This document shows, one piece after another, positions 11,726 to 16,927 of a stretch of DNA of 24,559 bases. A program made the translations under genes and the position numbers. The notes under the pieces are model-generated. The model did no database searches. It was not told where the DNA came from and worked only from the letters and a program-made list of their open reading frames with translations. Position 1 is the stretch's first letter. Every line of letters starts with the position of its first letter. The DNA lies in UHGV virus genome UHGV-0286028; one strand, written 5' to 3'. This stretch comes from a virus.

Positions 11726-12321
11726 TGATGCCTGCTGAACCTAAAACCTATAAACGCAAATCAACGCAATTTAAGCCACTAACAGCAATGCAGGAGGCTT
11801 ATTGCCAGTCATACATCAAAACGCCTGAAAACCAGACTCAGGCAGCGATTAACGCAGGATTCTCCCCAAATACAGCGGCAGTTAAAGCCAGTGTCATGAT
11901 GCGCGATGAACGCATTCAAAAACGGATTGCCGAGTTGATGGAGGAGCGCAACAAACGAATGCGCGTCAGTGCTGATTACGTTCTCATGCGCCTGGTGGAG
12001 ATCGACCAGATGGACGTGATCGACATCCTCAACGACGATGGGAGCCTTAAACCAATCCGTGAGTGGCCGAAAATCTGGCGCACTACGCTTAGTGGCTTTG
12101 ATCTGTCATCGACCATCATGAACATGAACGAGGATTCGATAGAGACAATCCTCAAAAAAATTAAATGGCCTGACAAGGTGAAGAACCTCGAACTGATTGG
12201 TAAGCACGTCGACGTCAACGCATTCAAAGAACGCCTGGATGTTAATGTGAATGTGACAATTGCTGATCGCATAGCGGCAGCCAGGAAGAGACTGAAAGAA
12301 CGTCAGGATGGCAATCAGTGA
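11725..12321 (+). CDS. Terminase small subunit
   Basis: ATG at 11725 (MMPAEPKTYKRK...); LTAMQEAYCQSYIKTPENQTQAAINAGFSPNTAAVKASVMMRDERIQKRI matches the small-terminase HTH region; stop overlaps the large-subunit start. The ORF-track start 11647 is a TTG inside the terminator. Confidence 0.7.
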   Translation: MMPAEPKTYKRKSTQFKPLTAMQEAYCQSYIKTPENQTQAAINAGFSPNTAAVKASVMMRDERIQKRIAELMEERNKRMRVSADYVLMRLVEIDQMDVIDILNDDGSLKPIREWPKIWRTTLSGFDLSSTIMNMNEDSIETILKKIKWPDKVKNLELIGKHVDVNAFKERLDVNVNVTIADRIAAARKRLKERQDGNQ

Positions 12322-13793
12322 CAGATACAGCGTTATCTCCTGAAGAGCAGTTAATCGAGGATATTGCAGGGTTCACTCACGATCCGCTTGGCTATGCCCT
12401 CTATGCGTTCCCGTGGGGGGAAGAGGGTACTGAACTGGCATATGCTACCGGCCCACGTCAGTGGCAGGCTGATGCGTTCCGAGAGATACGTGATCACCTG
12501 CAGAATCCAGAGACGCGCTATCAGCCGCTTATGCTGGCACGCGCTTCTGGTCACGGTATTGGTAAATCCGCATTCATCTCAATGCTGATCAACTGGGGCA
12601 TGTCCACTTGCGAGGATTGTAAGGTCGTGGTGACCGCCAACACCGACAACCAGCTACGAACGAAGACCTGGCCGGAAATTATCAAGTGGTCGAACCTTGC
12701 TATCACGAAAGACTGGTTTACCTGTACCGCTACCGCGATGTACAGCAATGACCCTGGGCACGACAAGCGGTGGCGTGCTGACGCAATACCCTGGTCTGAG
12801 CACAACACTGAGGCGTTCGCCGGACTACACAACGAGCGCAAACGCATCATCGTGGTGTTTGATGAAGCGTCGAACATTGCGGATCTGGTGTGGGAAGTTG
12901 CCGAAGGTGCGCTAACGGACGAAGACACTGAGATTATCTGGGTGGCGTTCGGAAACCCGACGCGTAATACCGGACGTTTCCGTGAATGTTTCCGCAAGTA
13001 TAAACACCGCTGGAAAACTGCGCAGATTGACAGTCGGACGGTGGAAGGTACCAACAAACAGCAGTTGCAGAAATGGGTTGATGACTACGGGGAAGACAGC
13101 GACTTCGTTAAAATCCGTGTGCGTGGCATATTCCCTGATGCATCTGAATTGCAGTTTATCCCTACCGGTCTTACTGACGAGGCAATGAAACGGGTGGTAA
13201 CCGCTGCGCAGGTTGCACATGCTCCGGTGATAATCGGCGTTGACCCGGCATACTCCGGCGTTGATGACGCTGTGATATACCTGCGGCAGGGGCTACACAG
13301 TAAGGTGCTGTGGACTGGCAACAAGACTACCGACGATCTGATTATGGCGAAGCGTATCGCTGACTTTGAAGACCAGTATCAGGCTGACGCGGTGTTCATC
13401 GACTTCGGTTACGGAACCGGTTTGAAGTCAATCGGTGACGGCTGGGGTCGTACATGGCAACTTGTTCCGTTCGGTGGCGCGTCTACTGACCCGCAGATGC
13501 TTAACAAGCGTGGGGAGATGTTCAACTCATGCAAGACATGGCTGAGGCTCGGCGGCATGCTGGATGACCGGGAAACAGCGGACGACCTGTCGACGGCAGA
13601 GTACAAAGTTCGCGTGGACGGTAAAATCGTTATCGAACCGAAGGAAGATATCAAAGAGCGACTTGGGCGTTCGCCGGGTAAAGGCGATGCGCTACTGCTG
13701 ACGTTTGCTTTCCCTGTGTCGAAGCGTCTGCGAATTCCTGGGCAGCAGAACCAGCAAGGCAAGGCCATCACAGATTATGACCCGTATGCTTAA
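12318..13793 (+). CDS. Terminase large subunit
   Basis: 491 aa; N-terminal ATPase region with P-loop-like GHGIGKSAF and acidic VVFDEAS (Walker B-like); C-terminal nuclease-like region (IGVDPAYSG ... FIDFGYG); position after the small subunit. Confidence 0.88.
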   Translation: MTDTALSPEEQLIEDIAGFTHDPLGYALYAFPWGEEGTELAYATGPRQWQADAFREIRDHLQNPETRYQPLMLARASGHGIGKSAFISMLINWGMSTCEDCKVVVTANTDNQLRTKTWPEIIKWSNLAITKDWFTCTATAMYSNDPGHDKRWRADAIPWSEHNTEAFAGLHNERKRIIVVFDEASNIADLVWEVAEGALTDEDTEIIWVAFGNPTRNTGRFRECFRKYKHRWKTAQIDSRTVEGTNKQQLQKWVDDYGEDSDFVKIRVRGIFPDASELQFIPTGLTDEAMKRVVTAAQVAHAPVIIGVDPAYSGVDDAVIYLRQGLHSKVLWTGNKTTDDLIMAKRIADFEDQYQADAVFIDFGYGTGLKSIGDGWGRTWQLVPFGGASTDPQMLNKRGEMFNSCKTWLRLGGMLDDRETADDLSTAEYKVRVDGKIVIEPKEDIKERLGRSPGKGDALLLTFAFPVSKRLRIPGQQNQQGKAITDYDPYA

Positions 13794-13841: not shown

Positions 13842-13872
13842 AAAGCCCGCGCATTTGGCGGGCTTTATTTTT
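13842..13872. terminator. Bidirectional rho-independent terminator after terL
   Basis: AAAGCCCGC / GCGGGCTTT stem with 7-nt loop, flanked by A/T runs on both sides; serves terL (+) and the converging minus-strand gene. Confidence 0.75.
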
Positions 13873-13878
13873 AAATAA

Positions 13879-14226
13879 TTATTTCTTGATAATATTTCCA
13901 GACATTGTGCTGGCGTTTCCACCAACAGTTTCGCAGATTACATCTCCAGACATGGTGTTTACATTTCCCAATACATTGGAACAATGGACATCACCAGACA
14001 TAGTTTTCACATAATGTGCATCACCGCTTACAGTCACTGATCCATTTTCAATCTCAACACCTTCCACGCTTCCATTAATTGTTACGTTAATCTGTCCGTC
14101 AAGATTGCTATTTTTTTCGACACCATCAACGATCACTTTTCCATTGTTAATCGTAATATGATGACCAGTGAAGTCTTCTCCGTTGACGCTAACGCTAGCA
14201 CCACGTACGTTATTGATTTTAATCAT
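13879..14226 (-). CDS. Beta-solenoid repeat protein (bactofilin-like), moron
   Basis: 115 aa; internal repeats (TMSGDV x2, TMSGNI; INVTINGSVEGVEIENGSVTVSGD); GAGGA SD 9 nt upstream of the ATG; flanked by its own terminators; opposite strand to the phage operons. Confidence 0.55.
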   Translation of the reverse strand: MIKINNVRGASVSVNGEDFTGHHITINNGKVIVDGVEKNSNLDGQINVTINGSVEGVEIENGSVTVSGDAHYVKTMSGDVHCSNVLGNVNTMSGDVICETVGGNASTMSGNIIKK

Positions 14227-14334
14227 TATAAATCATCCTCTTTTTGAATCGAGATTAACCTCAGGAGATACTATGACATGTTTTTCATGTATGTCGTAAT
14301 CTGCATCGATATCATAATTGTGACGTATCACGCC

Positions 14335-14359
14335 AAAAAAAATGCCCGGCGAACCGGGC
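14335..14359 (-). terminator. Rho-independent terminator (minus strand) ending the tRNA transcript
   Basis: Stem GCCCGG (14344-14349) / CCGGGC (14354-14359), loop CGAA; A8 run on plus (14335-14342) = U8 on the minus transcript. Confidence 0.7.
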
Positions 14360-14443
14360 GAACTGGAAGCAATGAGTTATGCCTTCCGTGGCTGTACTGG
14401 TTTACAGCATGAAGTCATCGCAATGGCGTCCTGCTGTAAAAAG

Positions 14444-14479
14444 GGCGGTGATGGTTTCCCTTGAAGGACTATCACCGCC
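14444..14479. repeat. Large inverted repeat / stem-loop in the tRNA 3' trailer
   Basis: GGCGGTGAT (14444-14452) and ATCACCGCC (14471-14479), perfect 9-bp arms with an 18-nt spacer that contains a secondary CCTT/AAGG pairing. Confidence 0.5.
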
Positions 14480-14522
14480 AAGCCCCTGGAACTTCTGGCA
14501 TCACGGTCCTTAGGCGTGATTC

Positions 14523-14599
14523 TGGCGTGGCATGCAGGATTCGAACCTGCGACCAACCGCTTAGAAGACGGTTGCTCTGTCCAACTGAGCTAATGCCAC
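14523..14599 (-). tRNA. tRNA-Arg (anticodon UCU), phage-borne, argU-like
   Basis: 77 nt; I folded the reverse complement by hand: acceptor GTGGCAT/ATGCCAC, D-arm GCTC-AGTTGGACA-GAGC, anticodon stem ACCGT/GCGGT with loop CTTCTAA (U33, UCU, A37), T-arm GCAGG-TTCGAAT-CCTGC, discriminator G, encoded CCA. Confidence 0.9.
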
Positions 14600-15026: not shown

Positions 15027-15233
15027 ATGTGCATGGGTAGCTCACCATCAGTGCCTGCAACACCAGAAGTTCAGGCAGCACCACAGGAGCAGGATGCCGC
15101 CGTTGTTGATGCCCGCGACGAAGAAACTCGTCGCCGTCGCGCTGCTGCTGGTCGTAGTTCTACGCTGCTTACCGGTTCTCAGGGCGACACATCAACCGCT
15201 AATACCAGCGGTAAAACGCTGCTTGGTCAGTAA
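15027..15233 (+). CDS. Small low-complexity virion-associated protein (T7 gp7.3-like position and composition)
   Basis: 68 aa; GGAG SD 8 nt upstream; Ala/Gln/Arg/Ser-rich; sits immediately before the portal gene, as gene 7.3 does in T7. Chosen over the overlapping 15007-15246 ORF. Confidence 0.4.
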   Translation: MCMGSSPSVPATPEVQAAPQEQDAAVVDARDEETRRRRAAAGRSSTLLTGSQGDTSTANTSGKTLLGQ

Positions 15234-15247
15234 CCGGAGTCATTGAA

Positions 15248-16927
15248 ATGGCGGAAACAACTAAAGAGCGATTGAACAAACAGTTCGCACAACTTGAAAG
15301 CGAGCGTCAGTCGTTCGAGCCGCACTGGCGCGAGTTGAGTGATTACATCAACCCGCGTGGTTCCCGCTTTCTGACTTCTGAGGTCAACCGTAACGATCGA
15401 CGCAATACACGCATTATTGATTCGACCGGGACTATGGCGGCGCGCACTCTCGCCAGCGGCATGATGTCAGGCATCACAAGCCCCGCGCGTCCGTGGTTTC
15501 GCCTGGCTACGCCAGATCCTGAAATGATGGATTATGGCCCTGTTAAGTTGTGGCTTGAGGCGGTGCAGAACCGCATGAACGATATGTTCAATAAGTCGAA
15601 TCTCTATCAGTCGCTGCCGCAGTTATACGGAAGCCTCGGCACATACAGCACTGCCGCAATGGCGGTGCTGGAGGATGACGAGGACATCATTCGTACAATG
15701 CCATTCCCGATAGGAAGTTACTACCTGGCTAACTCACCTCGTGGCAGTGTGGACACCTGTTTTCGCAAGTTCTCTATGACTGTTCGTCAGCTTGTTCAGG
15801 AGTTCGGACTAAATAACGTCAGCGAATCCGTAAAAAGCATGTGGGAAAGCGGCACCTACGAGAAGTGGATTGAAGTGATGCATTCGGTTTACCCGAACAT
15901 TGACCGCGATACATCGAAGCTGGATAGCAAGAACAAGCCATTCAAATCGGTTTATTACGAGGTTGGTGGCGATAACGACAAGTTGTTGCGTGAGTCCGGA
16001 TTCGATGAGTTTCCAATTATGGCTCCGCGCTGGGAAGTTAACGGCGAAGATGTTTATGGATCATCATGCCCGGGTATGCTGGCGCTTGGACCTGTTAAGG
16101 CATTGCAGCTTCTCCAGAAGCGCAAGTCGCAGTTGATTGATAAAGCCACCAATCCGCCGATGGTTGCTCCGACTTCCCTCAAGAATCAGCGCGCCTCCCT
16201 TCTTCCTGGCGACATCACGTATATCGATCAGATTACTGGTCAGGATGGTTTCAGGCCTGCTTATCTGGTTAACCCCAGTACAGCAGATTTGGTGGCAGAC
16301 ATTCAGGACACTCGTCAAATCATTAACAGCGCCTACTTTGTCGATCTGTTCATGATGTTGCAGAACATCAATACCCGCTCGATGCCTGTTGAAGCAGTGA
16401 TCGAAATGAAAGAAGAAAAACTTCTGATGTTGGGGCCGGTTCTGGAGCGTCTGAACGACGAATGTCTTAATCCTCTCATTGACCGCGCTTTCTCGATGAT
16501 GGTGCGTAAAAACATGCTGCCGCCACCGCCTGACGCGATGGAAGGTATGCCCCTGAAGGTCGAATACATTTCCGTCATGGCTCAGGCGCAGAAGTCTATC
16601 GGCCTGTCCAGTCTGGCGTCTACGGTCAACTTCATTGGTCAACTTGCGCAAGCGAAACCAGAAGCTCTCGACAAACTCAACGTTGATCAGGCGATCGATG
16701 CATTCGCTGATATGTCCGGAGTGTCTCCAACCGTCATTGTTCCGCAGGAACAGGTTGAGCAGGCTCGCCAGCAACGGGCACAGCAACAACAGCAGCAACA
16801 AATGATGGCGATGGGGATGGCGGCGGCACAGGGGGCCAAGACGCTAAGCGAAGCTAAAACTTCGGATCCGAGTGTGTTGTCAGCTATGGCGAATGCAGTT
16901 AGTGGTCAGGGTGGGCAATCACAATGA
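15248..16927 (+). CDS. Portal (head-to-tail connector) protein, T7 gp8-like
   Basis: 559 aa, first large gene after the terminase; Gln/Ala/Met-rich C-terminal tail (QQQQQQMMAMGMAAAQG) resembling podovirus connector C-termini; GGAG SD. Confidence 0.78.
   Translation: MAETTKERLNKQFAQLESERQSFEPHWRELSDYINPRGSRFLTSEVNRNDRRNTRIIDSTGTMAARTLASGMMSGITSPARPWFRLATPDPEMMDYGPVKLWLEAVQNRMNDMFNKSNLYQSLPQLYGSLGTYSTAAMAVLEDDEDIIRTMPFPIGSYYLANSPRGSVDTCFRKFSMTVRQLVQEFGLNNVSESVKSMWESGTYEKWIEVMHSVYPNIDRDTSKLDSKNKPFKSVYYEVGGDNDKLLRESGFDEFPIMAPRWEVNGEDVYGSSCPGMLALGPVKALQLLQKRKSQLIDKATNPPMVAPTSLKNQRASLLPGDITYIDQITGQDGFRPAYLVNPSTADLVADIQDTRQIINSAYFVDLFMMLQNINTRSMPVEAVIEMKEEKLLMLGPVLERLNDECLNPLIDRAFSMMVRKNMLPPPPDAMEGMPLKVEYISVMAQAQKSIGLSSLASTVNFIGQLAQAKPEALDKLNVDQAIDAFADMSGVSPTVIVPQEQVEQARQQRAQQQQQQQMMAMGMAAAQGAKTLSEAKTSDPSVLSAMANAVSGQGGQSQ

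Follow-up and report, generated by a model that had tools for sequence, protein, structure and literature searches.

A distinct family of predicted right-handed beta-solenoid proteins spread across mobile elements and carried at an exchangeable slot of a temperate podophage

The window that we analysed, a stretch of 24,559 nucleotides from the virus genome UHGV-0286028, comes from a phiV10/epsilon15-type temperate podophage of E. coli, and one small reverse-strand gene within it encodes a full-length member of PHROG 3163. The proteins of this family form a distinct right-handed beta-solenoid variant, set apart from both bactofilins and Toastrack proteins by every threshold, and they stand out by a characteristic motif and by their unusually wide spread among mobile elements. 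We infer, tentatively, that the product may on its own provide a binding or decoy platform and so serve counter-defence or host takeover, and we favour this reading over the others weighed below. The gene itself is already present in GenBank as a hypothetical protein and the only catalogue entry for its family is an unannotated PHROG, which gives no function; nevertheless, this is a large and compact family that crosses very different mobile elements and for which we found no name, Pfam model or literature. The gene is thus a sensible candidate for screening, if not yet surprising in itself, and because the same slot holds a Tad2-like anti-Thoeris gene in sibling prophages, it offers a cheap and concrete candidate for anti-defence and host-takeover screens.

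A reverse-strand gene in an exchangeable cassette

The region surrounding the gene is 97.9% identical to Escherichia phage TL-2011b, and the open reading frame is nucleotide-identical (100%) to TL-2011b gp23, where it is labelled 'hypothetical protein'. The coordinates assigned by the first-pass annotation, 13879-14226, match exactly a minus-strand open reading frame of 115 codons with an ATG start. This frame is placed between terL (12318-13793, plus strand) and the portal gene (15248-16927, plus strand), on the strand opposite to both, and adjoins a tRNA-Arg(UCU) gene. Its product has a mass of 11.9 kDa and a pI of 5.1, and neither a signal peptide nor a transmembrane segment was found in its 115 residues (top 19-residue hydropathy window, 0.62). 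It is a genuine, soluble, mildly acidic, stand-alone cytoplasmic protein under selection. The features of the locus are as follows:

13879-14226, minus strand: coding sequence of the 115-aa protein, a PHROG 3163 member (open reading frame call and profile match)
14236-14241, minus strand: Shine-Dalgarno sequence AGAGGA, 9 nt 5' of the ATG (read from the sequence)
13865-14335, no strand: exchangeable cargo cassette of 471 bp (homology breaks and composition)
13845-13872, no strand: GC-rich hairpin GCCCGC-7 nt-GCGGGC with a T-run, following terL (left joint; also the cargo gene's 3' end)
14227-14335, minus strand: cassette-specific upstream region of 109 bp (sequence)
14335-14359, minus strand: GC-rich hairpin GCCCGGTTCGCCGGGC with a T-run, directly upstream of the cassette (terminator-like; right joint)
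14444-14479, minus strand: 36-nt perfect palindrome followed by CTTTTT, the first terminator-like hairpin after the tRNA (BLAST self-hit and sequence)
14523-14599, minus strand: tRNA-Arg(UCU), the conserved right-side landmark of the slot (ARAGORN; Rfam RF00005, 71 bits)

The borders of the cassette were set by comparison with phiV10 and the prophages of E. coli PD23 and EC0026B: homology to them ends at 13864 and restarts at 14336/14337. The left joint falls in the T-run of the hairpin after terL, whose counterpart in phiV10 is annotated as a rho-independent terminator. Composition changes together with homology, the cassette having a GC content of 0.37-0.40 compared to 0.51-0.56 in its flanks, and the same holds for the cargo gene on its own (GC 0.39, GC3 0.34) when compared to terL and the portal gene (GC 0.52-0.54, GC3 0.58-0.60). 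The cargo is an AT-rich cassette of foreign composition that lies on the reverse strand between two hairpins.

Relatives carry other genes at the same slot:

phiV10: a gene of the gp49/Sf6 gp66 type (PF13876)
E. coli PD23: a Tad2-like gene (PF11195, E=4e-24)
E. coli EC0026B: a phrog_4846 orphan
Some other relatives: no cargo, tRNA only

The gp49-like and Tad2-like genes resemble the gene studied here in sharing its joints, its strand, its size range (98-139 aa) and its status as single-gene accessory cargo. They differ from it in that their sequences are unrelated to it, and a function has been demonstrated only for Tad2, which was shown experimentally to be an anti-Thoeris sponge that sequesters gcADPR (bioRxiv 10.1101/2023.05.01.538930). 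When 5426 complete E. coli genomes were searched, the present cargo was found in 11, while the slot query was partly matched in 507, mostly on the tRNA-Arg side.

The first-pass annotation had proposed that the gene is under independent control. The layout agrees with this, since the gene occupies a reverse-strand cassette between hairpins with T-runs, but no consensus promoter could be put beside it. The 109-bp upstream region, which is identical in TL-2011b and E. coli 2013C-3033, holds an inverted repeat (ACATG-N5-CATGT) and a weak sigma-70 candidate found by eye (ACGACA-18 nt-TAGTAT, 8/12), and a consensus scan of the region returned no minus-strand promoter matching at 9/12 or more. Furthermore, the sibling cargo genes start 11-16 bp past the shared hairpin, and transcription by read-through or from a shared upstream promoter is therefore possible.

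A 16-residue repeat and the predicted fold

Self-comparison of the protein gave a single outstanding offset, at 16 residues, where 24 positions are identical and the BLOSUM62 scores add up to +46. Among 2000 shuffled sequences the best offset averaged -15 ± 11 and none (0/2000) reached +46. The period of about 16 residues near the C-terminus that had been noticed at first pass was thereby borne out, and the units quoted for it were found where expected: TMSGDVHCSNVLGNVN at residues 75-90, TMSGDVICETVGGNAS at residues 91-106 and TMSGNI at residues 107-112. The signal stems from residues ~60-115, the N-terminal 70 residues being beta-strand-like without a strict 16-residue period. Within the C-terminal third, the repeat unit reads T-M-S-G-D-V-x-C-x-x-V-x-G-x-V-x, and it corresponds to the following feature:

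13891-14004, minus strand: three 16-residue rungs with T-M-S-G-D-(V/I)-x-C, residues 75-112 (period test and column conservation)

Tandem Repeats Finder detected no tandem repeat at the DNA level, so that the periodicity is confined to the protein, which argues that the repeat is old and selected and not the outcome of a recent duplication.

Conservation follows the same pattern. Across 60 aligned homologues, residues D34, G35, G52, G78, G87, M92, S93, G94, S109 and G110 are invariant, and T75, S77, D79, C82, T91, D95, C98, T107 and M108 are conserved in at least 90%, as is the T-M-S-G-D-(V/I)-x-C unit over three consecutive rungs; conservation is highest in the terminal rung. The most distant branch, from Bacillus phages, has the SGD turn replaced by TS(V/I)N and keeps both the Cys and the V-x-G-x-V strand. 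Individual family members carry between 2 and 5 copies of the motif [TS]-x-S-G-[DN].

An AF2 run with the 60-sequence alignment returned an all-beta model (mean pLDDT 88.4, pTM 0.77, no residue below 70) whose strands span the sequence from residue 2 to residue 114. Independent BFVD models of family members match at a TM of ~0.9. According to the model, the protein would fold into a right-handed beta-solenoid with some 6-7 rungs of ~16 residues each, where the number of rungs is our reading of the strand spacing in the DSSP string, and the repeat-built right-handed solenoid put forward from the sequence at first pass is supported by it. Structural comparison of the model returned the following matches, given with score, aligned residues and deviation:

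3lyc ('putative pectinase'): 7.2, 86 residues, 2.3 Å
Ca-dependent antifreeze protein 3p4g: 7.1, 86 residues, 2.2 Å
MinC C-terminal domain: 6.9, 63 residues, 2.0 Å
Antigen 43: 6.9, 80 residues, 2.1 Å
Bactofilin 6ria: 6.0, 66 residues, 2.2 Å
4qrk: 5.5, 69 residues, 2.0 Å
BacA 2n3d: 5.3, 66 residues, 2.4 Å

Left-handed helices (GlmU, LpxA) could be aligned only at 9-10 Å. Searches of PDB sequences with the single sequence and with two profiles gave no significant match, and the likeness to the MinC C-terminal domain is one of a generic shared fold, sequence similarity to it being absent in every search.

Relationship to bactofilins and Toastrack proteins

The first-pass annotation had likened the protein to bactofilins. 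The two are alike in architecture, as bactofilins (PF04519; 6ria, 6rib, 2n3d) are right-handed beta-helices of ~110 residues and roughly six rungs, but membership of the family could not be established. No Pfam match to PF04519 was obtained with the protein at E<=10, and Bactofilin was not among the 25 families most often matched by the 60 members. The best PF04519 score of any homologue was 14.9 bits (E 0.033, Bacillus phage BCP78) against a cut-off of 27.9, and the protein lies under every curated threshold. Bactofilins have unstructured N- and C-terminal extensions and often an N-terminal membrane-targeting sequence. The present protein, in contrast, has neither disordered terminal tails nor an N-terminal membrane-targeting segment, its T-M-S-G-D-V-x-C repeat and Cys ladder are absent from the consensus of the bactofilin alignment, and its family travels on mobile elements as a lone accessory gene.

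Profile comparison gave a more graded picture. The bactofilin set comprised 70 diverse sequences, all PF04519-positive, and had been seeded by one protein from a search with a 45-aa fragment of 6ria and then by a representative library. Using hhalign, the close alignment of the family (A1) matched this set at 42% with a score of 28 over 12 columns only, whereas the more diverse alignment (A3) matched at 79% (E 1.6e-5, score 35) over 63 columns spanning residues 29-92 of the protein, with its (V/I)DG aligned to the bactofilin RIDG. Reversed-sequence controls reached 15-39% (score 24-28, 29-30 columns) and column-shuffled controls at most 2.5% (score at most 18). The signal is modestly above the controls, and to judge from these alignments it is largely a generic solenoid pattern; a very remote kinship with bactofilins is possible. 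A bridge search started from the most divergent Bacillus-phage homologue retrieved 12 relatives, none of which had a Pfam domain, and therefore provided no bridge to bactofilins or to Toastrack proteins.

This comparison bears on the first alternative to our proposal, namely that the protein is a bactofilin-like polymer, in which filaments or sheets would arise from solenoids joined end to end and would scaffold something in the cell, for instance the division site, the envelope, or the complexes of replication or partition. Weak in-register phmmer matches to the Thermus thermophilus bactofilin 6ria recurred (E 0.29 and 0.65), a phage protein in BFVD that is named Bactofilin matches at E 5.8e-6, and the probability of the A3 match exceeds that of both kinds of control. 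The polymer reading also agrees with the conservation of the terminal rung, as contact from end to end would predict, and with one plasmid copy that sits just upstream of parA/parG. Against this stand the missing Pfam match, the short A1 alignment, the small margin in score over the reversed controls, the lack of tails and of a membrane-targeting segment, and a motif that bactofilins do not share. We consider polymerisation unlikely on balance. If the protein did polymerise, bactofilin-type cytoskeletons would extend to mobile elements, as the first phage- or plasmid-borne case; we found no literature on phage bactofilins or on beta-solenoid anti-defence proteins.

Toastrack proteins (DUF4097/DUF2807/DUF2154; LiaG, LiaF, YvlB) are defined by fusions to transmembrane, PspC or LiaF modules or by psp/lia neighbourhoods (PMC11237479). 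Weak matches to DUF4097 were seen in 17 of the 60 members (best E 0.0016), all of them below the gathering score of 22.9 bits; a plasmid homologue matched over nearly its full length (16.4 bits, E 0.006), and LiaG and LiaX appeared among the weak matches of the family searches. Such matches were commoner than those to bactofilin and likewise sub-threshold, and the protein itself had no Pfam match to DUF4097. It differs from Toastrack domains in being about half their length; 115 residues leave little room for their characteristic N-terminal seven-stranded intertwined region plus six rungs. Furthermore, no fusion to a PspC, LiaF or transmembrane module and no psp/lia neighbour was found in the ten contexts examined, where the protein was always stand-alone. 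The family is thus an orphan solenoid with Toastrack-like and bactofilin-like architecture for which membership of either family could not be demonstrated, and no confident match to an unrelated, characterised family was found in these searches.

Distribution, genomic contexts and possible roles

The protein matches PHROG 3163 over residues 2-115, on profile positions 6-120 of 121 (E=7.2e-37, 127 bits). One search of a large protein collection returned 1096 homologues, counted as sequence clusters, nearly all of 105-125 aa and none with a Pfam domain; Pfam, NCBIfam and PADLOC searches with the protein itself gave nothing usable. Family proteins are acidic, with a median pI of 5.0 and a median net charge of -3. 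By tblastn, the family was present in 161 phage records, covering Vibrio phages of the KVP40 type, ~145-kb phages of Klebsiella, Erwinia and Proteus such as Hena1 (Vequintavirinae), Bacillus Bastillevirinae, Acinetobacter phages, and ~350-kb phages of Erwinia, Serratia, Yersinia and Cronobacter. It was also present in 151 plasmid records, 109 of them conjugative (101 of these being conjugative enterobacterial plasmids), and in prophages of pathogens, e.g. A. baumannii and STEC. Giant viruses are possibly further carriers. Close copies of the gene are either identical or only 2 codons apart, which makes dN/dS uninformative. Names given by PGAP to plasmid homologues ('tail-associated lysozyme', 'phage tail protein') had no support from any Pfam or NCBIfam match and were set aside, and weak matches to TigB RiPP, YabP/YqfC and Pilin were put down to composition or to a generic beta-strand pattern. 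Literature searches for TL-2011b gp23, KVP40.0139, BCP78_0070, WP_000844302 and PHROG 3163 found none.

The gene occupies different surroundings in different elements. KVP40 and the unrelated Erwinia phage Hena1 carry it among small early genes, between rnlB (RNA ligase 2) and rIIA/rIIB, and Bacillus phage BCP78 within a long run of small uncharacterised genes. The A. baumannii prophages have it two genes downstream of an S24 repressor, on the same strand, in an operon that runs on to RecT and finishes close to the integrase gene. On the 101 conjugative enterobacterial plasmids, among them IncX-type ones such as the IncX4 plasmid pEc45_2, the gene has small genes as neighbours and is located upstream of hicAB-taxA-taxC, a position that we take to be compatible with the leading region; a literature search on the IncX4 leading region found nothing usable. 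Small E. coli plasmids carry it just upstream of parA/parG, and in Fusobacterium it is found in a conjugative-element-like chromosomal region that also encodes TopB, ParA and a DNA methyltransferase. In an Enterobacter prophage whose head genes follow a similar order, a 61%-identical copy sits at another site, between the major capsid gene and the gene for a 280-aa protein, possibly a protease or scaffold, that follows the Bbp19 gene. Its opposite-strand placement here and its location in early regions elsewhere led us to reject a role for the product as a virion protein.

All-against-all BLAST of 28 neighbouring proteins from the ten contexts revealed no conserved partner gene, which suggests that the protein works alone. 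Our preferred proposal builds on this: the protein, needing no partner, would act in a stoichiometric manner and offer a rigid surface for binding or as a decoy. Judging from the i, i+2 alternation in T-M-S-G-D-V-x-C-x-x-V-x-G-x-V, the core of the solenoid would take up M, V and C, and T, S and D would be left exposed as a ladder whose steps recur every 16 residues. This ladder may engage a component of the host or of a defence system, which could be a protein, a nucleotide signal or a metal, and the mobile element would benefit early after entry or in the lysogen, through counter-defence or host takeover. A motif count that ranges from 2 to 5 is easier to reconcile with a periodic surface than with a single pocket, and the early-gene, repressor-adjacent and plasmid positions appear typical of genes for counter-defence or host takeover. 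The slot itself can hold an anti-defence gene, in that the Tad2-like gene of PD23 lies at identical joints; this argument from location is a weak one, since the slot also holds orphans and since hotspots carry defence as well as anti-defence genes. No known anti-defence family matched the protein, and the near-invariant Met, Ser and Cys could instead reflect a polymer contact or a ligand site.

A more far-reaching version of the binding-platform proposal would make PHROG 3163 a new class of mobile-element effectors, in which a Thr/Ser/Asp ladder braced by Cys and Met neutralises a widespread immunity or housekeeping target. This would explain the spread of the family over virulent phages, prophages, conjugative plasmids, conjugative-element-like regions and perhaps giant viruses, and we regard it as somewhat unlikely.

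The gene could also protect the host on behalf of the prophage or plasmid that encodes it, by blocking superinfecting phages or competing elements. Its placement as a reverse-strand moron between terminator-like hairpins of a temperate phage is the classic layout of conversion genes expressed in the lysogen, the position downstream of the S24 repressor in A. baumannii prophages is rexAB-like, and protection of this kind is consistent with the occurrence of the family on plasmids. However, the family is widespread in the early clusters of strictly virulent large phages (KVP40, Hena1, Bastillevirinae, jumbo phages), which argues against exclusion as its main role, exclusion by virulent phages being possible yet less usual. 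Moreover, no PADLOC match was obtained, and a lone soluble solenoid of 115 aa with no enzymatic or membrane domain is unlikely to be a complete defence system. Host protection therefore seems improbable to us.

Least probable is that the Cys/Met/Asp/Ser/Thr ladder acts as a sponge for a metal or for a small molecule used in signalling, with binding perhaps at the interfaces of an oligomer. In its favour, Met, Ser, Gly, Asp and Cys are near-invariant over three successive rungs, which is more than core packing needs, the Cys is kept even in the Bacillus-phage branch with its altered SGD turn, and in a sibling prophage the slot is filled by a Tad2-like sponge. Against it, the alternation puts Met and Cys into the hydrophobic core and would give them a structural role, the number of rungs varies from 2 to 5, and there was no match to a known metal- or nucleotide-binding family. 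Such a sponge would be a special case of counter-defence by sequestration, comparable to Tad1, Tad2 and Acb2, and as such would overlap with the binding-platform proposal.

Cargo exchange between terL and tRNA-Arg

In E. coli prophages of the window's type, comparison with three relatives (L002, L016 and L017) showed that the segment between terL and tRNA-Arg (window 13865-14335) is swapped at identical joints, with the following alternatives as cargo.

Cargo alternatives of the terL/tRNA-Arg slot
Solenoid gene (window)
gp49/Sf6 gp66-type gene
Tad2-like anti-Thoeris gene
phrog_4846 orphan
None (empty slot)

The slot may be a useful hotspot for mining accessory or anti-defence genes. The interval from tRNA-Arg to the cargo gene carries two terminator-like hairpins in tandem.

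Hairpins upstream of the cargo gene
14444-14479, minus strand: terminator-like hairpin, first of the pair, on the tRNA-Arg side
14344-14359, minus strand: terminator-like hairpin, second of the pair, on the cargo-gene side

Since sibling cargo genes begin only 11-16 bp beyond the second hairpin, this element may act as an attenuator or processing site rather than as a full stop.

Two further ORFs lie near the slot. The annotated 84-codon ORF gp24 of the related Escherichia phage TL-2011b runs antisense to tRNA-Arg and corresponds to window 14342-14593 (plus strand), where the ATG at the same position opens only 40 codons; this ORF is probably not a gene. Directly upstream of the portal gene, a 68-codon ORF (15027-15233, plus strand) labelled 'hypothetical protein' is conserved in TL-2011b, in phiV10 (epsilon15p03-like) and in E. 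coli prophages.

Solenoid homologues in other prophages

Among homologues from outside E. coli whose genome context was traced, the closest one (61% identity) belongs to an Enterobacter hormaechei prophage (L015 8001-8348). There it lies on the late-gene strand between the major capsid gene and the gene after Bbp19, possibly a protease or scaffold gene, with gaps of 120 bp and 217 bp. As this prophage has a head-gene order similar to that of the window and carries the homologue at a different site, the two loci indicate separate, independent insertions of the same cargo.

In A. baumannii prophages (L010 6890-8366), the homologue, a protein listed in 96 blocks of the collection, is encoded two genes downstream of an S24-type repressor, on the same strand, and its gene overlaps a 73-aa ORF at the stop codon of the latter. 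This position resembles that of rexAB and would permit the gene to be expressed in the lysogen.

Homologues on conjugative plasmids and possible relatives in giant viruses

The IncX4 plasmid pEc45_2 encodes a homologue with 37% identity (L008 5965-6339), surrounded by small genes upstream of hicAB-taxA-taxC, in what is possibly the leading region; homologues also occur on 100 further conjugative plasmids. PGAP names the plasmid protein 'tail-associated lysozyme' or 'phage tail protein', and these names look wrong because it has no Pfam match and its NCBIfam matches are all sub-threshold. One of them, a weak match of residues 75-121 to the RiPP precursor TigB (E 0.0011), scores 19 bits where the cut-off is 70 and probably reflects repeat composition.

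When the AF2 model of the solenoid protein was compared with BFVD, proteins of 157-175 aa from the giant eukaryotic viruses Sylvanvirus, Fadolivirus and Klosneuvirus were matched at E-values of 6e-9 to 5e-6, with 23-32% identity. Judged from these model-based matches, the family, or its fold, may reach past prokaryotic mobile elements.
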